Part shown: one piece after another, positions 1,174-17,730 of the stretch | Layout of the letters: each line of letters opens with the position of its first letter | Numbering within the stretch: the stretch's first letter is position 1 | Assembly (NCBI GenBank): GCA_021162785.1 | Contig: JAGGYA010000010.1 | Coordinates: forward strand, 1,017-65,016 | Length of the DNA stretch: 64,000 bases | Source of the DNA: Candidatus Calescamantes bacterium | Lineage (GTDB): Bacteria > CAIJMQ01 > JAADFP01 | Direction of reading: 5' to 3' | The notes under the pieces: generated by a model | The model's database searches: none | What the model saw: the letters and a program-made list of their open reading frames with translations, nothing else | What the model was told of the DNA's origin: nothing | Position numbers and translations under genes: made by a program

Positions 1174-1447
1174 TAGGTGAAAGCAGGGGTGAAACTCAAG
1201 CTGGAGTAAGGGAGTGTTTTTTTCACCTCAAAGTATTCGGGATTCTTCTATCCAATCAGTTTACTCAGTTGAACCTTCCATGTAAAATATTCGCTCCTAT
1301 ATATGCGGGAGATAAAAATTCTGCGTTCTAAAAGATACGAGGGTGAGCTCTCCATAGAGAATGAGTCCCTCCTTAAATGGAAGGAGGAGCTGTCAGGAAA
1401 TGAACTACCTTAAGGACATCCTTCAATCCCTTGATTGATTCTCTTTG

Positions 1448-1519
1448 CTGCCCGGCGAGGACTCGAACCTCGACGCCTGGCTCCAAAGGCCAGTGTGCTA
1501 CCAATTACACCACCGGGCA
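1448..1519 (-). tRNA. tRNA-Gln (anticodon UUG)
   Basis: 72-nt cloverleaf on the minus strand. 7-bp acceptor tgcccgg/ccgggca, anticodon loop cuUUGga, T-arm gaggttcgagtcctc. No encoded CCA. Confidence 0.8.
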
Positions 1520-1541
1520 ATTCAATTATTATTTTAACATA

Positions 1542-2216
1542 TTACTCTTCCAATTCCGATTTAGCCTTTTGCAGAAGTTCTTTAACCTTAGGCTGATGGG
1601 GGGAGAGTTGAAGAGATTTTTCCCATTCTTTTATTGCCCTCTTCTTTTCGTTCATCGCATAATAGACCATACCTAAATTGTAATGAGTAAAAGGATTCTC
1701 AGGGTTAATTTTCAATGCTTCCTTAAAACATTTTTCTGCCTCTCTATATTGACCAGTGGAATAAAGTAAAGTCCCCAAATTATTATAGGCTAAATCAAAA
1801 TCCGATTTTAACTCGATTGCCTTACGATAAGCCTCTTCAGCTGACTTGGGGAGATTAAGCTCGCTTAATATATTTCCTAAATTATTGTATGCTTCTGCGT
1901 ATTCCGGGTTAAGCTGAATGGCTTTCTCACAAGACTCTCGAGCAAGTTCAAGTTTGCCTAAGTTTTCATAGGCATGCCCCAAATTATTATAGGCCACAGC
2001 AAATTGAGGGTTCAAAGAAACAGCCCTTTTAAAAAATTTAATTGATTTCTTATACTTTCCAATCCTAAGATATAAACGACCTAAATAATTAACAAATTCA
2101 CAGTTCTTTTTAAATTTATGGAGATTTTTCTCTAAAAACCTTATAGCTTCTCTAAACCTTCCTTCTTTCTCTAATCTTTTGACCTCCTCAATCCACTCCA
2201 CCCACCATTTTAACAT
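1542..2216 (-). CDS. TPR-repeat protein
   Basis: 224 aa with repeated ...AxxYNNLGxxYxxxGxxxxAxxxxxKAxxLNP... units (6+ TPRs). Confidence 0.8.
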   Translation of the reverse strand: MLKWWVEWIEEVKRLEKEGRFREAIRFLEKNLHKFKKNCEFVNYLGRLYLRIGKYKKSIKFFKRAVSLNPQFAVAYNNLGHAYENLGKLELARESCEKAIQLNPEYAEAYNNLGNILSELNLPKSAEEAYRKAIELKSDFDLAYNNLGTLLYSTGQYREAEKCFKEALKINPENPFTHYNLGMVYYAMNEKKRAIKEWEKSLQLSPHQPKVKELLQKAKSELEE

Positions 2217-2246
2217 ATGGATTTTTTGTGTTAAAATTTACTACCT

Positions 2247-3353
2247 ATGATTTCATATGAAGACCTGGTTTCCCTTCTCGCTTACTCCAGCAACCAAACC
2301 CAAGTAATTAGTCTTTATTTAAATGTAAAAAGGGAAAGAGTAAACGAAAACCAACATGTTACTGCTTTTAAAGACTTAGTGAAAAAAATCCCTGAAAATA
2401 AAAGAGAGAAAAATAAAGAAATACTGGATAAAATAACCTATTTTCTAAAATACCAATTCCGGCGGGATAACAAAAACGGTTTGGCTTTATTTGCCTCCCC
2501 TTCACCTCCTTTATGGAAAGTTCTTCTCCTCCCGGAAGCAGTTCGGGATCTTTTAGTCATAGAAACCCATCCCTACACTAAACCCCTTTTTGCAGTGGTA
2601 GACCGATATCGAAGATTCGCTGTGGTTCTTTTAGACCAGACCAAAACAAGGATTTTAGAAGTCTTTATGGGAGATATTGAAGAAAAAATCGAGATCAAAA
2701 GCGAAGTCCCTCATGAAGTAAAAACCTCTGGATGGAAAGGATACGGAGAAAGAATTCACAATCACATTTATAACGAAAGATTGAGGCATTTCCATATAGT
2801 TGCCCAAGAAGTAGTCTCGGTTTGGCGGAGGACACATTTTGACTATTTAATTCTTGGGGGTGTAGAAGAAAACTTGGTTCCTTTTATATCCTTCCTCCCT
2901 ACCTTTCTACAAGAAAAAGTAATAGGGAAACTTTCCCTACCAATTAATGCCCCCCTATCCGAGATTATTAAGAAGGCTGTAGAAATGGAGAAAAGGGAGA
3001 AAGAGGTCAGAATACAGAAATTAATTGAACTTATAATGGAAGACAAATCAAGGGAGGGCTTAGCTGCTATAGGTCTTTCATCCGTTCTTAAAGCTTTAAA
3101 TTACTATGCAGTAAGAGAGTTAGTGGTAGAAGAGGGATTCACAGAGCCAGGTTATATTTGCAGAGGATGTGGATTTTTATCTATAGAGAAAGAAATTTGT
3201 CCCTATTGCAGAAAAAAAATGGAATCAAAAGAGGATATAGTGGAAGAAGCTGTAGAAAAAGCTATTGCCCAGGATGCTTTGGTAGAATATGGTAGGGAAG
3301 GTATACTTAAAGATGTAAAAATTTTGGGCCTTTTAAGATTTAAAGTTCCCTAA
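2247..3353 (+). CDS. bacterial eRF1/Pelota-like protein (baeRF-type) with C-terminal zinc ribbon insert
   Basis: 368 aa. The central RFAVVLLDQTKTRILEV block looks like eRF1 domain 2. The C-terminal GLAAIGLSSVLKALNYYAVRELVV block matches the eRF1/Pelota domain-3 motif. It is followed by a CRGCG..(14)..CPYC zinc ribbon. Confidence 0.5.
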   Translation: MISYEDLVSLLAYSSNQTQVISLYLNVKRERVNENQHVTAFKDLVKKIPENKREKNKEILDKITYFLKYQFRRDNKNGLALFASPSPPLWKVLLLPEAVRDLLVIETHPYTKPLFAVVDRYRRFAVVLLDQTKTRILEVFMGDIEEKIEIKSEVPHEVKTSGWKGYGERIHNHIYNERLRHFHIVAQEVVSVWRRTHFDYLILGGVEENLVPFISFLPTFLQEKVIGKLSLPINAPLSEIIKKAVEMEKREKEVRIQKLIELIMEDKSREGLAAIGLSSVLKALNYYAVRELVVEEGFTEPGYICRGCGFLSIEKEICPYCRKKMESKEDIVEEAVEKAIAQDALVEYGREGILKDVKILGLLRFKVP

Positions 3354-4204
3354 TGGTTAATTTTAATTTTTTTGACCTTTTCTGGTTATTTTTTATTTTC
3401 TCCGCTTTGCAACCTCTTCTTAAGCAGAGATTATTAGAAGGAGCGAGAGTCAAATTGATAACCTCCATTGAGAAAAAGAGAAAATCCCGAGTAATAACTC
3501 TTATTCATCGTCAGGAAACTATGAGTCTCCTCGGCTTCCCTATCCTGCGGTATATCGATATAAATGATTCGGAGGAGATATTAAGAGCTATTCGCCTTAC
3601 TCCATCGGATATGCCTATAGATTTTATCCTCCATACCCCTGGAGGGCTGGTACTTGCTTCTCTCCAAATAGCCTTTGCTTTAAAAAAACACCCTGGTAAA
3701 GTAACAGTATTTGTGCCTCACTACGCCATGTCAGGGGGCACCTTTATCGCTCTTGCTGCTGACGAGATAATAATGGATCCCCATGCTGTTCTTGGCCCAG
3801 TAGATCCCCAATTGGGTGAATATCCTGCTGTCTCTATACTTAAAGTTCTGGAAGAAAAAGATAAAAACGAAATTGATGATAGAACCCTTATAATGGCAGA
3901 TATCGCCAAAAAAGCTATTCATCAAGTGGAAGAAGCGGTTTATAAAATCCTTGAAGGCCGATATTCACCGGAAAAAGCTAAGGAACTTGCCCACCTTCTA
4001 TCCTCAGGAAAATGGACACATGATCACCCTATCACCTTTGAAGAAGCAAAAAGCCTGGGACTCCCAGTTAACGAAAACATGCCTGAGGAAATTTATCAAT
4101 TAATGAGCCTTTATCCTCAACCTGTAAGACGACAACCTTCTGTAGAATATATACCTATTCCTTACCGTCCCCATCGTTTACCCCGAAGTAAAGGAGAGAT
4201 TTAG
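3353..4204 (+). CDS. membrane-anchored ClpP-fold serine protease, SDH (Ser-Asp-His) / S49-like family
   Basis: 283 aa. N-terminal TM helix ([18 protein letters not shown]), then a ClpP/crotonase-like core with HTPGGLV...[30 protein letters not shown]. The start ATG overlaps the upstream stop (TAATG). Confidence 0.55.
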
Positions 4205-4206
4205 CC

Positions 4207-4917
4207 ATGCCCAAATTAGGAGTAAATATTGACCATGTAGCCACCTTAAGGGAAGCACGTAAAGTCTCTTATCCTGATCCGGTTCAGGCAGCGGTTATCT
4301 GTGAACAAGCAGGTGCTCATGGTATCGTAGCTCATTTACGCGAAGATCGGCGTCATGTAAAAGAAAGGGATATTTTTCTCCTTAAAGAAATAATTAATAT
4401 AAAATTTAACTTAGAAATGGCTCCCACTCAGGAAATCAGGGAAATAGCTTTAAAACTCAAACCTGACCAAGTTACCCTGGTGCCGGAAAGGAGGCAGGAA
4501 CTCACCACGGAAGGAGGATTGGATGTTGTCTCCTTAAAAGATTTTCTAAAGGAATATATCAAACCTTTTAAAGATGCTGGTATTATCGTCTCCCTTTTCA
4601 TAGACCCTGAAACTTCTCAGATAGAAGCAGCTAAAGAAACAGGCGCTCAAAGTATAGAAATCCATACCGGAGAATATGCAAATCTAAAAGGCTTAGAAAG
4701 AGAAAAAGAACTTGAGAAAATCATTGAGATGAGCGAATTTGCTCATAAACTGGGATTCCATGTCCACGCAGGGCATGGACTCAATTACTGGAATGTAAAA
4801 CCCATAGCTAAAATTCCGGTAATCGAAGAACTTAACATAGGGCATTCCATTATTTCCCGTGCGGTCTATGTGGGGTTGGAAAGAGCAGTTAGAGAAATGC
4901 TCCAGCTAATAAGATGA
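4207..4917 (+). CDS. pdxJ: pyridoxine 5'-phosphate synthase
   Basis: 236 aa. [18 protein letters not shown]...HLREDRRH... and later ...GHGLNY motifs are the PdxJ signature. Confidence 0.9.
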
Positions 4918-6470
4918 AAGTCGTCACTTCTTCCCAAATGCGAGAAATCGACCGAAGAACAATTGAGGGAATAGGCATCCCCTCCTTGGTCCTCATGGAA
5001 AATGCTGGCAGGAAAGTAGCAGAAGCTATACACAAATATTTCCCAGAAGTTAAAAATATAATCCTCCTTTGCGGTCCAGGGAATAATGGGGGAGATGGAC
5101 TGGTATGTGCACGCCATTTAAGACTCCATTATGGGAAAAAGGTTTTAGTTTACTTAGCCAGAAGGGACAGCCTTTCCCCCGATGCAGAAAGAAATCTTAG
5201 AATCCTTGAGAATTTAAATTTCCAAATTTTTGAATGGATGAATCCACCCTCAATTGAAGAAAGCGATCTTTTAGTGGATGCCTTACTTGGGACAGGGATA
5301 AAAGGAAAACCGGAAGGAAAAATTGCAGACATGATTCGGTGGATCAATGCTTCCTCTCTTCCAGTGGTCTCAGTAGATACCCCATCAGGTTTATCTGGAG
5401 ATTTTCCACCCCACCCAGATTACACAGTGAAAGCCTTAATTACAGTAACTATGGCCTTACCCAAAAAGGAACAAGTAGTATTTCCAGGAGCTGAATATGT
5501 GGGGAAATTGATAGTTGCAGACATTGGCTTTCCCCCTCCCCTTTTAGAAAGTGAGGAATGGAAAATAGAAATAATGGAAGGGGAAAAATTAAAGCAGTGG
5601 ATTAAACCACGGAGACCTGATACCCATAAGGGGACATATGGTCATACTTTAATTCTTTCAGGTTCCCAGGGATTCACGGGAGCTCCCCTTTTAACTGCAA
5701 AGGGAGCCCTTCGCTCAGGAGTGGGACTCATAACCTTAGGTATCCCAGAAACAATTTATTCAATTGTGGCAGGAAAAATTCCTGAAATCATACCTTTTCC
5801 TCTCCCTGCAAAGGAAGGGGGGTTTACTCTCAGTGCTTGGCAAAAAATAAAAAATTGGGGCCGAAAAATCACCTCCCTTGTTATAGGACCGGGAATATCC
5901 CTTGCTTCACCAGTAAAAGAATTCGTCAAAAAAGTGATTGAGGAAAACCAACTGCCTATGGTGGTAGACGCAGACGCATTAACTATTATTTCCGAAGACA
6001 CTTCCATACTAAAAAAGGCTAAATCTCCTCTAATCCTAACCCCTCATCCTGGAGAAATGGCCAGATTAATAGGAAAAAGCATTGATTATGTTCTTAATCA
6101 CCGTATAGAAGTTGCCTTATCTTTTGCCAGAGAATTCAATTTAATCTTGATTTTAAAGGGAGCAAGAACAGTGATTGCCACTCCAGAGGAGAAGGTCTTC
6201 ATAAATCCCACCGGAAACCCGGGAATGGCTACTGGTGGAATGGGCGATGTGTTAACCGGACTTATTGGAGGACTTTTGGCTCAAGGTTACACTCCCTTAG
6301 AAAGTGCCCTTATAGGTGTATTTATCCATGGAGCCAGTGGAGATATCCTCTGGGAAGAAAGGAAGACAACTTCTCTAAGTGCTACGGAAGTAGCGGAAAA
6401 TATACCTTTTACCTTTTCCCGCCTAAGGGAAGGGTATCTTGACGAGTTAAATTTTTATGATAAAATTTAA
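4914..6470 (+). CDS. nnr: bifunctional NAD(P)H-hydrate repair enzyme Nnr (YjeF-N epimerase / YjeF-C ADP-dependent dehydratase)
   Basis: 518 aa. N-terminal YjeF_N domain ([11 protein letters not shown]...[11 protein letters not shown]) and C-terminal carbohydrate-kinase-like domain (GPGIS...[16 protein letters not shown]). ATGA overlap with pdxJ. Confidence 0.9.
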
Positions 6471-6479
6471 TGTAAAATT

Positions 6480-6554
6480 GCCGGCGTAGCTCAATGGTAG
6501 AGCGCCTCACTTGTAATGAGGGGGTTGGGGGTTCGAGTCCTCCCGTCGGCTCCA
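6480..6554 (+). tRNA. tRNA-Thr (anticodon UGU)
   Basis: Acceptor gccggcg/cgtcggc, anticodon loop cuUGUaa, T-loop ggttcgagtcc, encoded CCA. Confidence 0.85.
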
Positions 6555-6574
6555 AAGTTTAAAAGATGATAAGA

Positions 6575-6657
6575 GGAGGGGTACCCAAGTGGCCAAAGGG
6601 GGCAGACTGTAAATCTGCTGGCGTAAGCCTTCGGAGGTTCGAATCCTCCCCCCTCCA
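6575..6657 (+). tRNA. tRNA-Tyr (anticodon GUA), long variable arm
   Basis: Acceptor ggagggg/cccctcc, anticodon loop cuGUAaa, long variable arm ctggcgtaagccttcgg, T-arm ggaggttcgaatcctcc. Confidence 0.85.
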
Positions 6658-6658
6658 C

Positions 6659-6733
6659 GCGGGAATAGCTCAATGGTAGAGCATCGGCCTTCCAAGCCGA
6701 GGGTTGCGGGTTCGAGTCCCGTTTCCCGCTCCA
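6659..6733 (+). tRNA. tRNA-Gly (anticodon UCC)
   Basis: GCGGGAATAGCTCAATGGTAGAGC start, anticodon loop cuUCCaa, encoded CCA. Confidence 0.85.
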
Positions 6734-6741
6734 GATTTTTA

Positions 6742-6815
6742 GCCCATGTGGCTCAGGCGGTTAGAGCGCGTCCTTGGTAAGGACGAGGTCGGCGGTTCGA
6801 GTCCGCCCATGGGCT
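6742..6815 (+). tRNA. tRNA-Thr (anticodon GGU)
   Basis: Acceptor gcccatg/catgggc, anticodon loop uuGGUaa, T-arm ggcggttcgagtccgcc. No CCA. Confidence 0.85.
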
Positions 6816-6831
6816 CAAGGAGTAGAAGAAA

Positions 6832-6978
6832 ATGAGAGAGGTAGTTCATCTTGCTTGCACGGAATGTAAGAGGAGGAATTACACTACCACAAAAAGGAAG
6901 GATAAAAGAGAGAAACTCCAGCTCCGGAAGTATTGTAAGTATTGTAGGAAACACACCCTTCACAGGGAAACTAAGTAA
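6832..6978 (+). CDS. rpmG: 50S ribosomal protein L33 (Zn-ribbon C+ form)
   Basis: 48-aa ORF missed by the ORF track: [48 protein letters not shown] with CxxC..CxxC. RBS aggag 8 nt upstream. Canonical position before tRNA-Trp/secE/nusG. Confidence 0.9.
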
Positions 6979-7006
6979 TTTGAATTTTTCCGTTTTGTGG
7001 TATAAT
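6979..7006 (+). promoter_or_regulatory. candidate sigma70-type promoter with extended -10 (TTTGAA/TTGAAT ...15-16 nt... TGgTATAAT) upstream of tRNA-Trp-secE-nusG
   Basis: Sequence tttgaatttttccgttttgtggtataat sits ~20 nt upstream of the tRNA-Trp 5' end. Confidence 0.4.
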
Positions 7007-7026
7007 TAAATGGGAGGTATTTTTGT

Positions 7027-7101
7027 AGGCCTGTAGCTCCAACTGGATAGAGCGCCGGACTCCAAATCCGGTGGTTGGGGGTTCGAATCCTCCCAGGCCT
7101 G
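7027..7101 (+). tRNA. tRNA-Trp (anticodon CCA)
   Basis: Acceptor aggcctg/caggcct, anticodon loop cuCCAaa, T-arm ggttcgaatcc. Confidence 0.85.
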
Positions 7102-7121
7102 CAATTTTTTTAGGTTTAATT

Positions 7122-9942: not shown

Positions 9943-12900
9943 ATGCCAAGGCCGGTGGAAGTAAGAGATTTCACAAAAATTCCAAGTGTAATGGATCTTC
10001 CACCTTTAATAGATGTGCCTCGTGAATCTTACGAAAGGTTCTTTCAAAAGGATGTCCCGCATGAGAAAAGGGCGCCGGTTGGACTTAAAAAAGTTTTGGA
10101 TGAAATCTTTCCTATAGAAGGGAAAAATGGGAAAATTGAACTTCATCTTTTAAGTTATGAAGTAGAAGACCCCCCAACCACGGAAGAAGAATGCGTAAGA
10201 AAGGGGATAACTTATGCGGTTAAAGTAGCCTTAAATACCCGACTCTACATTTACAAAACCACAAAAAAGAAGGAAATATCCTCAATTCGAGAAGAACGGG
10301 TTTATCTTGGAGAATTTCCTTTAATGACTGAAAGAGGCACCTTTATCATAAATGGTGTGGAAAGAGTTGTAGTTTCACAGCTTCATCGTTCCCCTGGAAT
10401 TATATTCGAATCACTCGGGACAGTAAGAGGTAAAGAACTTTTCTCTGCACGTATAATACCTGATCGAGGTATTTGGCTGGAATTCACAACTGATACCTCT
10501 GATCTTATTTATGTCAGCATAGGTCGTCGAAGAAAAATGTTAGTTACTACTTTCCTAAGAGCCATAGGTTTCACCAGAGATAGTGATATAATCCGTGCAT
10601 TCTATAGTGTAGAAAATGTAGACATAACTAAGAAAGGAGCTCCTCAAAAAGTCCTGGGGAAAAGGTTAGCAGAAGATGTTTTGGATCCTGATAGTGGAGA
10701 AGTTCTCTTGGAATCCAAAAATGAAATAACCTTAGAACATCTCAAAATCTTCAGCATAAAAGGGGTTAAAAAAGTAAAGATAATAAAGGAAACCGCTCCC
10801 GAAGATTTAATGGTTCTCAACACATTAATAAAAGATGACCACAAAACAGAGGAAGGAGCTCTTTCCTTCGTCTACTCACGACTCCGGCCCGGGAATCCTT
10901 TTGAACCAGAGACTGCACGAGCTTATCTTTACAACTCCCTCTTTGATAAAGACAGATTTGACCTCTCGCGTATAGGGAGATATAGACTCAACCGCAGATT
11001 AGGATTGAATGTCCCATTAGAAGAAACCAGTTTAAGAATCCAAGACATTCTTGTAACCATTAAAGAGCTCATAAAAATTGCTAAAGGTGAGTCTGAGGTA
11101 GATGATGTGGACCATCTTGGAAATAGAAGAGTAAGAAGAGTTGGTGATTTAATGGAAAATCAAACCCGAGTAGCCCTTTTAAGAATGGCAAGAATGGCTC
11201 AGGAAAGAATGCTACTCGAAGATGAAGACGAACTCATGCCCCACGACTTAGTAAATCCCAGAATCATCAATACTACTCTTCATGAATTCTTTGCAAGGAG
11301 TCAGCTCTCCCAATTCCTTGATCAAACAAATCCTCTTTCTGAATTAACCCACAAAAGGAGATTAAGCTGTCTGGGGCCAGAGGGGCTTAGTAGAGAAAGA
11401 GCAGGTATAGAAGTTAGAGATGTTCATCCTACACATTATGGAAGAATATGTCCCATTGAGACTCCAGAAGGTCAGAACATAGGTTTAATAACCTCTTTAG
11501 CCACCTACGCTCGGGTTAATGAACTGGGACTCCTGGTTACCCCTTACCGCAAAGTAGAAAACGGTAGAGTTACCAACAAGATTGAATGGCTGGCAGCTGA
11601 TGAAGAAGACAATTTTGTGATAGCTCAAGCAAATGCTCCTGTTGACGAGGAAGGGAGATTTATAAATCCGGAGGTAATGGTTAGATTCAAAGGAGACTTC
11701 ATGCGTGTTCCTCCGGAAAAAGTGGATTATATGGATGTAACCCCTGTTCAGACGGTAAGTGTATCTTCCTCTCTAATCCCCTTCTTGGAACACGATGATT
11801 CTAACCGTGCTCTCATGGGTTCAAATATGCAGAGGCAAGCAGTCCCTCTACTCTTTACCGAACCACCTTTAATTCAGACAGGAATGGAGGGTAGAGCTGC
11901 CCGAGATTCCGGTGCAGTAGTTGTTTGCAAAGCAGATGGTGTAGTAATCGAAGTTAATTCTGAACTTATAGTGGTAAAACGAGATGATAGTGACAAATTA
12001 GGAGATTTTGATTATTATCCTTTGAAAAAATTTGCCCGAACAAATCAATCCACCTGTTTCCATCATCGTCCCAAGGTTAAGAAAGGGGATCGAGTGAAGA
12101 AAGGAGATGTCTTGGCAGATGGTCCCGCTACTCGAGACGGTAAACTTGCTTTAGGAAAAAATGTATTGGTTGCTTTCATGCCTTGGGAAGGGTATAACTT
12201 TGAAGATGCCATACTTATAAGCGAAAAACTGGTAAAAGAGGATGTTTATACCTCTGTCCACATAGAAGAATTTGAGATTGAATGTCGAGAAACCAAGCTC
12301 GGTAAAGAGGAAATTACCCGTGACCTCCCCAATGTTAGTGAAGAAGAACTTGCAGACCTGGATGAAGATGGAATTATAAGAATAGGTGCCTATGTAAAAC
12401 CCGGGGATATCCTGGTCGGGAAAGTTACCCCTAAGGGAGAAACAGTAACAACTTCGGAGGAAAAACTTCTCCGGGCCATTTTCGGTGAAAAAGCCAGTGA
12501 AGTTGTCAATAAATCTTTACGTGTCCCTCCCGGTGTAAGGGGTATTGTTATTGATGTAAAGGTCTATTCCCGCGAAAAAGAAGACATCGAGAAAGAGAAA
12601 AAGAATTCTCCCGAAGTTCAAATAATGAAAAGAAAATACCAAACTTTACGACGCTGTGTAGAAGAAGAAAGAGAAGAAATATTGAAATCCCTTCTCTTAG
12701 GTAAGAAGCTTTCCAAACCCCTCAAATCAAAGAAAAAAACCATTCTGGAGGCAGGAACAGTAATTACTGAAGAAATCTGGGAAAAGATAAAAGGAAGGAA
12801 CCTAAAAGAATTGAAAATTGGACAGCCACAGATAGAGTCTAAAATTGAGGCAATCGAAGAAGAATTTGCAGAAAAGATCAAAGAATTAAAAGAAAAAGAG

Positions 12901-15900
12901 GAGAACGAAATAAAAAGACTCATTGAAATTGAAGAGCTTCCTCCTGGAGTGATCAAAAAAGTGAAAGTTTATGTAGCCTCCAAAAGAAAAATTCAGGAAG
13001 GAGACAAACTATCTGGAAGACATGGGAATAAAGGAGTGGTGGCCCGTGTACTTCCAGAAGAAGATATGCCTTACCTCCCCGATGGTAGACCTGTAGAAAT
13101 AGTTTTAAACCCACTTGGTGTTCCCTCCCGCATGAACCTTGGGCAATTATTGGAAACTCACTTAGGATGGGCAGCAAAGGTCTTAGGCTGTGAAGTTATC
13201 ACCCCTGTATTCAATGGAGCTAAAGAAGAAGAAGTTTGGGAAATGCTTAAAGAAGCTGGCCTCCCTGAAGATGGAAAAACCATTGTTTATGATGGAAGAA
13301 CAGGCGAACCTTTCCATTCCCCAGTAGTGGTTGGATACATTTATATGATGAAACTTATCCATATGGTAGAGGACAAAATACACGCTCGAGCCACTGGACC
13401 TTACTCCCTTATTACACAGCAGCCCTTAGGTGGAAAGGCTCAATTTGGTGGCCAGAGATTTGGAGAAATGGAGGTATGGGCACTGGAAGCATATGGAGCA
13501 GCTTACACTCTTCAAGAAATGCTTACCGTAAAAAGTGACGATATCGAGGGAAGAAGCAGAATTTATGAAGCCATTGTGAAAGGTGAAAATACACTTATCC
13601 CTGGAACTCCAGAATCCTTCAATGTGCTGGTAAAAGAACTTCAGGGACTCTGTATAGATGTAAAAATTGAAAAAGCCAGACCTTCCTTAGATGAGAAAGG
13701 ATTGATTACACCAGAAAAAGGGAGGACTGAGGTAAGGAGTGTTACCTTAGGAATTGCTTCCCCACAACTCATAAGGTCGTGGTCTTACGGAGAAGTAAAG
13801 AAACCGGAAACCCTAAATTACCGAACCCTTAAACCCGAAAGAGACGGTCTCTTCTGTGAAAAAATCTTTGGGCCCACCCGAGATTGGGAGTGTTACTGCG
13901 GAAAGTATAAGAGAATTAAACATAAAGGTGTAATTTGTGAACGCTGTGGAGTAGAGGTTACTCAATCTAAAGTGAGAAGAGAAAGAATGGGGCATATAAA
14001 TCTGGTAACACCCGTAGCTCATATCTGGTTCTTCAAAGTAGTTCCTTCCGTAATGGGGACTCTTCTAAACATAACCCTGCCAAACCTTGAACGGGTTATC
14101 TACTATGACGCCTGGATTGTAATCGATCCGGGGAATACTCCATTGGAGAAGTGCCAGGTCTTAAGAGAACAAGAATACCAGGAAGCAAGAGAGAAATACG
14201 GTGATGCTTTCCGGGCAGGGATGGGTGCCCCTGCACTGAGAGAAATACTGCAGGAACTTGACTTAGATAAACTTGCAGAAGAACTAAGACAGCAAGAAAA
14301 AATGACCAAATCACGACAGCAGAAATGGAGAATTAACCGCAGACTCAAACTTGTAGAGGCTTTCAGAAAATCTGGCCAGAGACCTGAATGGATGATACTG
14401 GAAGTTATACCAGTAATTCCACCTAATCTCCGTCCTCTTGTGCCACTGGACAAAGGTGGTTTTGCCACCTCAGACCTAAACGACCTTTACCGCAGACTCA
14501 TCAACAGAAACAACCGTCTTAAGAAACTCATGGAAATGGGTGCTCCCGAAATCATACTCAGAAACGAAAAAAGAATGCTTCAGGAAGCAGTGGATGCTCT
14601 CTTTGATAACAGCCGTAAAGCCAGACCCGTAGTTGACCAGAACGGAAGGCCACTTAAATCCTTAGCAGATACTTTAGCAGGTAAACAAGGTAGGTTCCGA
14701 CAGAATCTCCTTGGTAAAAGAGTGGATTATTCTGGAAGATCAGTCATTGTAGTAGACCCCAAACTCAAACTTTATCAGTGTGGTTTACCAAAAGTAATGG
14801 CATTAGAACTCTTCCAGCCCTTCATTATAAGAAACTTGCGGGAGAAAGGGTATGTCCATACAATTCGTTCGGGTAAGAAACTAATTGAAAAAGGGACACC
14901 TGAAGTCTGGGAAGCATTAGAAGAAGTAATCAAGGGACACTTAGTTCTGCTTAACCGTGCACCTACCCTCCACCGTATAAGTATTCAAGCATTCCAGCCA
15001 GTTCTTCATGAATCCAAGACAATTCGAATACACCCCTTAGTCTGCCCTGCTTACAACGCAGACTTTGATGGAGACACAATGAGTGTATTTGTCCCTCTTT
15101 CTTTAGAATCCTTACTTGAAGCACGGTTACTCATGTTATCTTCCCACAACTTATTTGCACCAGCTGATGGCCGTCCAATAGTCACTCCTACTCAGGATAT
15201 TGTTCTGGGAGTATATTACCTCACCTTAATGGATCCCAAAAAGAAACCGGAGAAGAAGTTCTACTTCCCGGGTGAGGCTATTCAAGCTTATGAACTGGGG
15301 TATGTTAAACTTAACGATCCTATTTATCTATACAAAGGTGGAGAATTTATAGTTACTACACCCGGTAGATTAATCTTCAATTCTCTCTTACCCGAAGGAA
15401 TTCCCTTTGTTAATGAAGAAATAACCAAAAGTAAATTAGCTTCCTTAATCACCACCATTATAAATAAGAAAGGTAAAGATAGAATTGTGGAATTCTTAGA
15501 TGAACTGAAAGAACATGGTTTCCACTATGCAACTATTGGTGGTATTTCAATGGGTATGGCAGATGTTAAAGTGCCACCCAAAAAGTGGGATATCATAGAA
15601 GAAGCAAGAAAAGAAGCAGAAAAGATTGAAGAAGACTATCGCAAAGGAATAATTACCATGGGAGAACGATATAATCAGATTGTTGACCTCTGGACCAGAG
15701 TCTCCGATGAAATAGCTGATCTTATGCTTCAAGAACTCTCCAGTGATCCTTTCAACCCTGTTTACATGATGATGGCCTCTGAAGCAAGAGGAAGTGCACA
15801 ACAGATTCGGCAACTTGGTGGTATGCGAGGTTTAATCGCCAGACCGAGAAAGAAACTGGTAGGTGCAGTAGGTGAAATCATAGAGACACCAATTCTCACC

Positions 15901-17730
15901 AACTTCCGTGAAGGGCTGACTGTGCTGGAATACTTCATCTCCACTCATGGTGGAAGAAAAGGATTAGCCGATACCGCCTTAAAAACTGCTGAAGCTGGAT
16001 ATCTCACACGCAGACTTGTAGATGTGGCTCAGGATATCGTGGTAAGGGAAGAAGATTGTGGAACATTAAATGGAATTATTATGCGAGCACTGGAAATCGG
16101 AGGGAAAGTAATAATACCTCTCCGTGAAAGAATTGCCGGTAGAATAGCGCTGGAAGACATTCGTATTCCTTCATTGGGAGATGTAATAGTTAAGGCTGGT
16201 GAAGAAATCACTCCTGAGAAAGCTGAAATCATTGAGGAAGCAGGAGTAGAAGAAGTTCCTATTAGGTCTGTGCTCACCTGTGAAAACCGGATGGGTGTAT
16301 GTCAAAAATGCTACGGTAGAGATTTAGCCACTGGTGAAATGGTAGAAGTAGGACAAGCAGTAGGAATAATGGCTGCTCAAGCTATAGGTGAACCAGGCAC
16401 TCAGCTCACTTTAAGAACTTTCCACATTGGTGGAATGGCTACCCGAATTGTGGGAGAAAGCCAGTATCAAGCAATGAAGGGAGGTAGGGTTAAATTTGTT
16501 AACCTTAAAGCCATTGAGAAAAATGGCCAGAAATTGGTCCTTAACCGAAATGGTTGGATAATACTCTTGGATGAAGAAGGTAAAGAAGTGGAGAAATTCA
16601 AGATCCCTGTAGGGGCAATTATTAAAGTAGAGGAAGGAGTAGAAGTTAAGTCTGGGGAAGTTCTTGTAGAATGGGATCCTTATGTCAGACCTTTCCTCTC
16701 TGAGATTGATGGTAAAGTGGAATTTGAAGAAATCATACCTGACATTACAGTAAAGGAAGAAATAAATAGAGAGACTGGCCTTAAAGAAATGGTAATTATT
16801 GAACATCGTCCACAATTTCAGCCAGCCATAAGAGTCAAAAATGAAAAAACTGGAGAAGAAAGAATCTATCCCCTCCCCATAAATACCCATATTGTTGTAG
16901 AAAATGGTGCGGAAGTAAAAGCAGGGGATATGCTGGCAAAAACCATGAGGGAAGTAGTAAAAGCTACGGATATTACGGGTGGTTTACCTCGAGTTTCCGA
17001 ACTCTTTGAGGCAAGAAAACCGAAAGATCCTGCAGTAGTCACAGAGATCGATGGTGTGGTTAAGAAGATTGTAAGAGAAGAAAAAGAAAGGAAGATAATA
17101 ATTGAGGCGGATGATGGTGAAATAAGAGAATATAGAGTTCCACCTGGTAAACATATTGAAGTAGATGTGGGTGACCGGGTAGAAGCAGGGCAGAAACTCA
17201 CCGATGGTCCAGTAGTCCTTCAGGAAATCCTCAGAATTGAAGGTGAAAGAAGACTTCAGTACCATCTTCTCAATGAAATTCAGGAAGTTTACCGACTACA
17301 AGGAGTAAAGATTAACGATAAACATATAGAACTTATCATCCGTCAGATGCTGAAGAAAGTTCAGATTGAAGATCCAGGAGACACCAATTTCCTGTGGGGT
17401 GAACAAGTAGACAAATTCAAGTTCCAGGAAGAAAACGAAAGAGTAATTCGTGAAGGAGGAAGACCTGCTCAGGCACGACCTCTGGTTCTGGGTATCACTA
17501 AAGCTTCCCTTTCTTCAAGTAGTTTCATTGCTGCAGCTTCTTTCCAGGAAACCAGCAGAGTATTAACTCGTGCAGCGGTATATGCGCAAAGAGATGAATT
17601 GAAAGGGATTAAGGAGAATGTTATAATAGGCAACCTTATTCCTGCAGGAACGGGTTGGAGACAGTATAGAGAAGTGGAGGTTGTGAAAAGTGCCGACCTT
17701 GAATCAACTGGTACGGAAGGGCAGACATAA
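9943..17730 (+). CDS. rpoBC: fused DNA-directed RNA polymerase beta-beta' subunit (RpoB::RpoC single polypeptide, 2595 aa)
   Basis: One uninterrupted ORF. Residues ~1-1245 are RpoB (ends ...[21 protein letters not shown]). After a ~20-aa linker, canonical RpoC begins ([48 protein letters not shown]...NADFDGD...) and runs to the end. Confidence 0.9.

Follow-up and report, generated by a model that had tools for sequence, protein, structure and literature searches.

A glutamine-less, zinc-ribbon-bearing baeRF family 10 protein and its facultative SDH-family protease neighbor in a Candidatus Calescamantes bacterium

Here, we describe two overlapping genes from the metagenome-assembled genome of a Candidatus Calescamantes bacterium of hot environments, located in a 64,000-nucleotide (nt) stretch of contig JAGGYA010000010.1 (GenBank assembly GCA_021162785.1) that is referred to here as the window. 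The first gene, open reading frame 1 (ORF1), encodes a Balon-like protein with the three-domain aeRF1 fold, and the second, ORF2, encodes an SDH-family serine protease with a ClpP-type fold; both are further members of known families. The reading that we favor, with a probability of roughly 0.55, is that ORF1 is a Balon-type, noncatalytic factor of the ribosomal A site, expressed from a stress-related operon together with a membrane protease involved in proteostasis, the two proteins forming no obligate machine. Pairing of the two genes is facultative and is not sufficient on its own to define a new system. The features on which the argument turns are as follows (coordinates are those of the window):

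2247..3353, plus strand: ORF1, 368 amino acids, three-domain aeRF1 fold, Pfam baeRF_family10, Balon-like
2724..2759, plus strand: tip loop TSGWKGYGERIH of the ORF1 middle domain (residues 160 to 171), at the position of the aRF1/eRF1 GGQ loop and lacking a glutamine
3159..3209, plus strand: zinc ribbon C305xxC308-x9-C318xxC321, inserted in the C-terminal (Pelota/eRF1_3) domain of ORF1
3351..3355, plus strand: stop/start overlap TAATG between ORF1 and ORF2, read from the sequence
3353..4204, plus strand: ORF2, 283 amino acids, SDH-family ClpP-fold serine protease

The ORF1 product is identical to NCBI protein J7K56_01525. It matches the Pfam model PF18854 (baeRF_family10) with an E value of 1e-25 and 91.1 bits against a gathering threshold of 27.1; the match spans residues 109 to 248 and covers profile positions 1 to 142 of 143. 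Matches to the eRF1_3, aRF1, and pelota models are weak, as are the full-length matches to the NCBIfam aRF1 and pelota models, which fall far below their cutoffs. A sequence search of the Protein Data Bank (PDB) retrieved Pelota (3j15) at 1e-7 and, at ∼1e-5, two homologues of Balon, Msmeg1130 and Rv2629, both of which a profile of the family matches at an E value of 1e-35. We used an AlphaFold2 (AF2) model of ORF1 built on 26 homologues (mean predicted local distance difference test score [pLDDT] of 88) for structural comparison with Foldseek. The model comprises an N domain, an RNase-H-like middle domain, and a Pelota/eRF1_3 C domain, and its best match is the ribosome-bound Mycobacterium smegmatis Balon Msmeg1130 (8v9l_z; E value, 7e-23; TM score, 0.74), followed by aRF1 (4af1), the P. 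urativorans Balon, Rv2629, eRF1, and Pelota. E values range from 1e-16 to 1e-23 for aRF1, eRF1, and Balon and from 1e-8 to 1e-11 for Pelota. Based on this ranking, the eRF1/Pelota fold of ORF1 is confirmed, and its nearest solved relatives are hibernation factors.

These results bear out much of an original prediction made from the DNA alone, which had given the coordinates and lengths of both genes (reproduced exactly by the list of open reading frames) and described the TAATG overlap of the ORF1 stop with the ORF2 ATG. The eRF1-Pelota architecture that it ascribed to ORF1 is recovered by the structure search, and a baeRF model, PF18854, is matched above its cutoff. The central block that it regarded as domain-2-like, RFAVVLLDQTKTRILEV (residues 123 to 139), falls where the middle domain begins, in its first strands, and the C-terminal block that it took for a domain-3 motif, GLAAIGLSSVLKALNYYAVRELVV (residues 271 to 294), aligns to GLVAYGLKEVEEAVNYGAVETLLV of Pelota. 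Its view that no function had been defined for bacterial eRF1-like proteins, on the other hand, has been outdated since the description of Balon in 2024, the best match of the ORF1 model.

The middle-domain tip loop bears on whether ORF1 could release peptides. Neither a GGQ-like nor a NIKS-like motif, which the original prediction had left to be checked, was found: the ORF1 sequence contains no NIKS, GGQ, GGW, or SQ. The tip loop is also the least confident part of the ORF1 model (pLDDT, 64 to 68). Much of family 10 carries K-x-GGWSQ-x-RYQRH at this position, and the family profile aligns GGWSQ to the GGQS of archaeal aRF1 (E value, 4e-34), while the SNIKS region of aRF1 is aligned to unconserved residues of the profile. 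Given the conserved catalytic-type glutamine, it has been suggested that family 10 may still hydrolyze peptidyl-tRNA (Burroughs and Aravind 2019, PMC6514570). In ORF1 and its four closest relatives (P0002 to P0005; 51 to 53% identity), GGWSQ is replaced by TSGWKGYGE(R/K)IH. A survey of the loop in 183 relatives gave the following types:

ORF1-like G[WF]xG[YTN]: 36 relatives
GGxSQ: 43 relatives
GGQ: 4 relatives
Other, variable: 100 relatives

With GGxSQ in only 43 of the 183 relatives, the motif marks a subfamily and not family 10 at large. The nearest representatives of clusters at 50% identity, which are 31 to 38% identical to ORF1, mostly have GGWxGYEExRIxRH-like loops devoid of glutamine, and the conserved glutamine is missing in all baeRF proteins linked to an SDH gene. 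Rv2629, a proven A-site binder, has the loop AGWNGYGD, which is similar to SGWKGYGE of ORF1. Because the ORF1 loop lacks glutamine, as do nearly all of those in its nearest relatives, and resembles that of Rv2629, ORF1 is probably not a hydrolase. Across 65 family 10 loci (L001 to L065), the loop at the GGQ position is very variable, ranging from GGWSQ to glycine-rich inserts of 20 residues (L028 and L032); a Thermoplasmata archaeal locus among them (L065) encodes a true GGQ-bearing aRF1.

Two further features of ORF1 were compared to the solved Balon proteins. The zinc ribbon aligns to a Cys-less insert, VGTVGADGSLYADGEIAPHSH, in the C domain of Msmeg1130, and 152 of the 183 relatives have a pair of CxxC motifs. 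In Balon, the C domain has a beta-hairpin insertion that contacts EF-Tu (PMC10901736), and two-strand inserts at the zinc-ribbon site have been read as degenerate zinc ribbons (Burroughs and Aravind, PMC6514570). The ribbon had been predicted as CxxC-14-CxxC; its four cysteines are present, but they are spaced by 9 residues, not 14. ORF1 also contains H108-P109, of which P109 is invariant in family 10, and HPY..KPL of ORF1 aligns to GPF..HPL of Msmeg1130. The HP motif of Balon lies in the N domain and touches the decoding center (PMC10901736, the text of which gives no residue numbers).

ORF2 is a full-length match to PF01972 (E value, 1e-127; 425 bits against a threshold of 31.3) and to the NF047768 equivalog "SDH family Clp fold serine proteinase" (444.6 bits against a cutoff of 250). 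Together with a conserved hydrophobic helix at its N terminus (residues 6 to 23; nt 3368 to 3421), these matches uphold the earlier assignment of ORF2 as an N-terminally membrane-anchored SDH-family serine protease. The candidate nucleophile is S127 within YAMSGGT (nt 3722 to 3742). Among 30 ORF2 homologues, H52, H94, S127, D151 (in GPVDPQ), K169, K187, H223, and D224 (in WTHD) are invariant, making S127, D151, and H223, plus D224 and H94, candidates for the Ser/Asp/His catalytic residues. The "DPH" (residues 142 to 144) that had been put forward as an ORF2 motif is not among the conserved positions, as S127, D151, and H223 are; it varies among SDH proteases (MDRQ, MSPH, or MDEN). The AF2 model of ORF2 (pLDDT, 79.5) starts with a long helix and is closest in Foldseek to the membrane protease SppA and to ClpP (E values of ∼1e-6). 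No basic residue precedes the hydrophobic segment and several follow it, which, by the positive-inside rule, suggests that the catalytic domain faces the cytoplasm. The SDH family is very large (at least 8,000 matches) and, as proteins from many phyla share ∼70% identity, slow evolving. For the SDH protease (PF01972, DUF114), the literature searched yielded only incidental mentions, with no solved structure or biochemistry.

ORF1 and ORF2 are flanked by genes that prove more constant companions of ORF1 than ORF2 is. The features around the pair are as follows:

1542..2216, minus strand: TPR-repeat gene, 224 amino acids, five repeats (Pfam TPR_1/TPR_2), divergent from ORF1
2207..2237, both strands: palindromic promoter-like element ATTTTAACA-N14-TGTTAAAAT, found by consensus match
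4207..4917, plus strand: pdxJ, pyridoxine 5'-phosphate synthase (PF03740; E value, 3e-104), third gene of the apparent operon
4914..6470, plus strand: nnr, bifunctional NAD(P)H-hydrate repair enzyme (YjeF_N plus Carb_kinase), fourth gene of the operon

The TPR gene starts 30 nt upstream of ORF1 and occupies the same place in the related loci L066, L067, L154, and L156 (49 to 63% identity). As had been predicted, the pair lies directly upstream of pdxJ and nnr in an apparent operon, with a gap of 2 nt between ORF2 and pdxJ and an overlap of 4 nt between pdxJ and nnr; nnr is also found downstream in L154 and in L157 to L160.

Conservation of the pair was assessed from both sides, using 65 genome loci from a scan with 7 close sequences for the baeRF family 10 (baeRF10) gene (L001 to L065) and 80 metagenome loci for the SDH gene (L074 to L153). 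Among the 65 baeRF10 loci, an SDH gene lies directly downstream only in L001 and L002, two Caldisericota-like metagenome-assembled genomes. The Caldisericota-like order is TPR (on the minus strand), baeRF10, SDH, and PdxJ, with identities to the window of 49 to 59%, 51 to 52%, 79 to 80%, and 70 to 71%, respectively; further downstream, the genes are different. The ORF1 clade has five members, including the window, and the order of TPR (minus strand), baeRF, and, further on, pdxJ is always kept. An SDH gene between baeRF and pdxJ is present in the window, L066, and L067, and is missing there in P0002 (L154) and P0004 (L156). With SDH in only three of the five clade members, it is the TPR gene and pdxJ that accompany ORF1 throughout. 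From the SDH side, a baeRF10 gene occurs within 7 kb in 2 of the 80 loci, both times in convergent orientation. The expectation that the two genes be conserved as neighbors is thus borne out only in part (in L066 and L067 but not in L154 or L156), and "hard-wired," as the pair had been called, is too strong a term. Four more loci (L157 to L160) belong to the same species as the window (93 to 94% DNA identity) and are not independent evidence. In two independent assemblies among them, the contig ends inside the final 66 nt of ORF1, at the ORF1/ORF2 junction (L157:1-67 and L158:1-66), while L159 and L160 span it; the breaks may reflect strain-level variation of ORF1 or an accident of assembly.

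In the wider data sets, both genes have stress-related company. Immediately upstream of SDH, on the same strand, a rhomboid gene (Pfam Rhomboid) is found in 56 of the 80 loci at a median gap of 13 nt; Hsp20 occurs in 12 of the 80 and ClpB in 6. This usual company points to a role of the SDH protease in membrane or general proteostasis, to judge from gene neighborhoods. A MerR-type regulator, Hsp20, or ClpB often adjoins the rhomboid-SDH pair (e.g., L147:89-4375, L078:2454-4031, and L107:1574-3959), and no description of a rhomboid-SDH (rhomboid/ClpP-like) pair was found in a literature search. On the baeRF10 side, 17 of the 65 loci have a ClpB, Hsp20, DnaK, DnaJ, or Usp gene within 6 kb, in agreement with the operon survey of PMC10901736, which places Balon genes next to Hsp20, DnaK, and DnaJ in stress operons. 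A protease partner is not mentioned in the text of PMC10901736 or PMC6514570.

Several baeRF10 neighborhoods bring the two sides together. In Fraserbacteria and Bipolaricaulota (L028 and L032), the order is Rubrerythrin-VIT1, baeRF10, a ClpB-like AAA+ gene, and SDH, the last two overlapping; because the AAA+ gene overlaps the start of SDH, the ClpP-fold SDH protease may work with an AAA+ unfoldase. The AAA+ protein (L028:7179-10696 and L032:7174-10388) is an 887-residue, ClpB/ClpC-like double-AAA+ protein with an N-terminal extension containing CxxC. In Thermaceae (L048 and L058), baeRF10 ends a dnaK-grpE-dnaJ-MerR-clpB-rubrerythrin-like-baeRF10 series, of which grpE and dnaJ are shown in L058, a relative of the Thermus locus. 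In L048, the baeRF gene is followed by hsp20 and, ∼4 kb further, by an SDH-rhomboid pair; in L058, SDH is <1 kb downstream. A rubrerythrin- or ferritin-like gene stands immediately upstream of baeRF10 in five loci from three phyla (L028:4830-5921, L032:4854-5945, L048:5566-5946, L049, and L058), fused to a VIT1 iron transporter in two of them.

Expression signals at the locus were examined next to the coding sequences. On the plus strand, the promoter-like site consists of a -35 element, TTAACA (2210 to 2215), a 16-nt spacer, and an extended -10 element, TGTTAAAAT (2229 to 2237), which ends 9 nt before the ORF1 ATG. With 10 of 12 consensus matches and the TG extension, it is the best such site in positions 1500 to 7000. 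Since ATTTTAACA and TGTTAAAAT form a perfect 9-nt inverted repeat, a -35/-10 pair can be read on both strands, which suggests bidirectional, overlapping promoters; ATTTTAACAT and TGnTAAAAT are kept in the Caldisericota-like relatives L066 and L067. The sequences upstream of ORF1 and ORF2 contain no Shine-Dalgarno motif, and pdxJ has a strong one of its own, AAGGAGAG. As the -10 element abuts the ATG and no Shine-Dalgarno motif precedes it, ORF1 is probably read from a leaderless mRNA or one whose leader measures just a few nucleotides. Without its own ribosome-binding site, ORF2 probably depends on ORF1 for translation, and termination-reinitiation at the overlap would be the simplest reading. 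In L066 and L067, baeRF and SDH overlap by 8 nt, ATGCCTAA, compared to 1 nt in the window.

We prefer a reading in which expression, rather than a joint machine, connects the two proteins. ORF1 belongs to a large branch of baeRF family 10 that carries the zinc ribbon and lacks the glutamine; by analogy to the solved Balon complexes, ORF1 would sit in the ribosomal A site during stress. Its N domain would reach the decoding center and its middle-domain loop the peptidyl-transferase region, and the C-domain insert might contact EF-Tu, with no release of the peptide. ORF2 would serve membrane or general proteostasis as a membrane-anchored ClpP-fold protease, and both genes would be cotranscribed with pdxJ and nnr from the promoter abutting the ORF1 start codon. 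The baeRF-SDH link would then amount to shared, stress-linked expression in one operon. In several phyla, baeRF10 and SDH are found in a common stress-related neighborhood; in one lineage they came to lie side by side, an arrangement that some of its members lack.

Several observations weigh against this reading. ORF1 is only 17 to 18% identical to the solved Balon proteins and scores far below the cutoffs of all three NCBIfam Balon hibernation-factor models (62.2 against 330 bits for AOC03_06830, 60.6 against 480 for MSMEG_1130, and 39.7 against 320 for Rv2629). The window contains no CIRCE heat-shock operator (HAIR-type operators were not searched for) and no rhomboid, chaperone (including ClpB and Hsp20), rubrerythrin-like, or HPF gene, so that stress regulation of the ORF1 operon itself is something we infer, as we infer ribosome binding, the substrates of the protease, and its membrane topology. 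A physical partnership would equally account for the conserved overlap of stop and start and for the missing Shine-Dalgarno motif before ORF2. Finally, an SDH gene lies within 6 kb in 6 of the 65 baeRF10 loci, compared to an expectation of ∼0.3 under random placement of a single-copy gene (Poisson p, ∼1e-6; the six loci represent only three lineages, with chaperone genes around the two genes each time). This looser proximity link between baeRF10 and SDH is real.

A partnership could take the form of a dedicated ribosome-associated quality-control module, as the original prediction had proposed, in which ORF1 recognizes stalled and possibly membrane-bound ribosomes and ORF2 degrades the nascent chain or removes ORF1 so that the ribosome wakes. 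The overlap shared by the window, L066, and L067 (1 and 8 nt), the missing Shine-Dalgarno motif, and the recurrence of SDH near baeRF10 in three lineages are in its favor, and the predicted cytoplasm-facing catalytic domain of ORF2 could reach ribosomes. L154 and L156, however, keep baeRF and pdxJ without SDH at the site, the regular partner of SDH is a rhomboid, the two baeRF10 genes found among 80 SDH loci are convergent, and the operon packs pdxJ and nnr no less tightly. In other phyla, ClpB or Hsp20 separates the two genes, so a shared regulon explains their proximity, and we regard such a module as rather unlikely. A bolder version seems to us somewhat less probable still, namely, that the Balon-like factor parks in the A site of membrane-protein-inserting ribosomes under heat stress while the cytoplasm-facing SDH protease clears the arrested chains, or that the protease destroys the factor and so restarts translation, rhomboid-SDH and ClpB-SDH pairs being variants of the same membrane quality-control pathway. 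Somewhat better placed, though unlikely as well, is an accident of operon structure, whereby, in a thermophile with a compact genome, an SDH gene came to be inserted between baeRF and pdxJ and has simply been inherited since. The presence of SDH is variable, the operon also includes the unrelated housekeeping genes pdxJ and nnr, and the TPR, baeRF, (SDH), pdxJ block is syntenic at 49 to 80% identity, which makes the tight adjacency a single evolutionary event. Against an accident, the two genes lie near each other independently in Thermaceae and in Fraserbacteria/Bipolaricaulota, more often than chance predicts, baeRF10 and SDH each associate independently with the same chaperone genes, and the loss of its own Shine-Dalgarno motif by ORF2 argues for selection for coupled expression.

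The remaining alternatives depart further from the preferred reading of ORF1 as a noncatalytic A-site factor. That it is an active alternative release factor acting as a peptidyl-tRNA hydrolase has some appeal because PMC6514570 singles out family 10 for its catalytic-type glutamine and because the GGxSQ loop of 43 relatives is profile-aligned to the GGQ of aRF1. Yet ORF1 and its four closest relatives have no glutamine in the loop, the nearest cluster representatives mostly lack it, and ORF1 has no NIKS-like motif; this reading is very improbable, and we set it aside on account of the missing glutamine. A role in antiphage defense or intergenomic conflict, which the original prediction had entertained, could draw on the argument that baeRF-1 clades were laterally transferred, perhaps in answer to ribosome-targeting effectors (PMC6514570). 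PADLOC models, however, give only a 14-bit chance match to ORF1 and none to ORF2. No mobile-element genes lie nearby, GC content is 0.34 to 0.42 over the pair against ∼0.37 to 0.47 in the flanks with no sharp break, the slow-evolving protease is conserved across phyla, and the flanks are housekeeping genes, the locus adjoining the ribosomal-protein and rpoBC clusters. We consider a conflict role extremely unlikely and dropped it when no PADLOC match rose above chance. Of the interpretation originally offered, the families, the overlap, and the operon stand, and the undefined function, the hard-wiring, and the conflict role do not.

The surroundings of the operon were also surveyed. Five tRNA genes (6480..7102, plus strand; Thr-Tyr-Gly-Thr and then Trp) lie between nnr and a secE-nusG-rplKAJL-rpoBC block, placing the ORF1 operon directly beside the main translation and transcription cluster, and a tRNA-Gln gene (1447..1519, minus strand) lies downstream of the TPR gene. 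Positions 9943..17730 (plus strand) form a single ORF of 2,595 amino acids in which the complete set of RpoB (Rpb2) domains precedes the complete set of RpoC (Rpb1) domains, that is, an rpoB-rpoC gene fusion. Such fusions are known in Helicobacter and Wolbachia.

The main value of the locus lies in the large, glutamine-less, zinc-ribbon-bearing family 10 branch to which ORF1 belongs and in the clear rhomboid partner of SDH. Balon-type hibernation factors were recognized only in 2024, and the ORF1 branch, numbering 191 or more 50%-identity clusters (E value of ≤1e-30), has lost the glutamine and kept the ancestral zinc ribbon at the site of the Msmeg1130 insert, which makes it a useful comparison for the conversion of an aeRF1 into a hibernation factor. 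For the widespread and uncharacterized SDH protease, the rhomboid partner, together with chaperone neighbors in a minority of loci, offers a lead on function.

Among known systems, ORF1 is best compared to the Balon hibernation factors (P. urativorans Balon, Msmeg1130, and Rv2629; PMC10901736; PDB entries 8rd8, 8v9j/l, and 8v9k), which are its best structural matches. It shares their three-domain aeRF1 fold (TM scores of 0.61 to 0.74), their lack of NIKS and GGQ, the site of the C-domain insertion, and relatives that are found in chaperone or stress operons. Unlike them, it falls into Pfam family 10, whereas a fragment of Rv2629 belongs to baeRF_family2; its zinc ribbon has four intact cysteines, in contrast to the Cys-less insert of Msmeg1130, and it has no RaiA/HPF neighbor. 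Within baeRF family 10 (PF18854, PMC6514570), ORF1 has the full three-domain architecture with a zinc ribbon, but its branch lacks the GGxSQ glutamine for which the family was highlighted. The fold and domain order are also those of aRF1/eRF1 and Pelota/Dom34; the zinc ribbon in the C domain recalls aRF1, and the absence of a catalytic glutamine recalls Pelota. ORF1 differs from aRF1/eRF1 in having no NIKS, YxCxxxF, or GGQ motif and in belonging to a bacterial host with its own RF1/RF2. ORF2, for its part, resembles the SDH family (PF01972/NF047768, formerly DUF114) over its full length, including the MSGGT serine in a G-x-S-x-G-like setting, and shares with the structurally characterized membrane ClpP-fold proteases SppA and NfeD/1510-N the ClpP/SppA fold and an N-terminal membrane helix. 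SppA and 1510-N use a Ser-Lys dyad, in contrast to the candidate triad S127/D151/H223 of ORF2. What sets ORF2 apart from the usual SDH protease is its upstream partner, a baeRF gene in place of a rhomboid.

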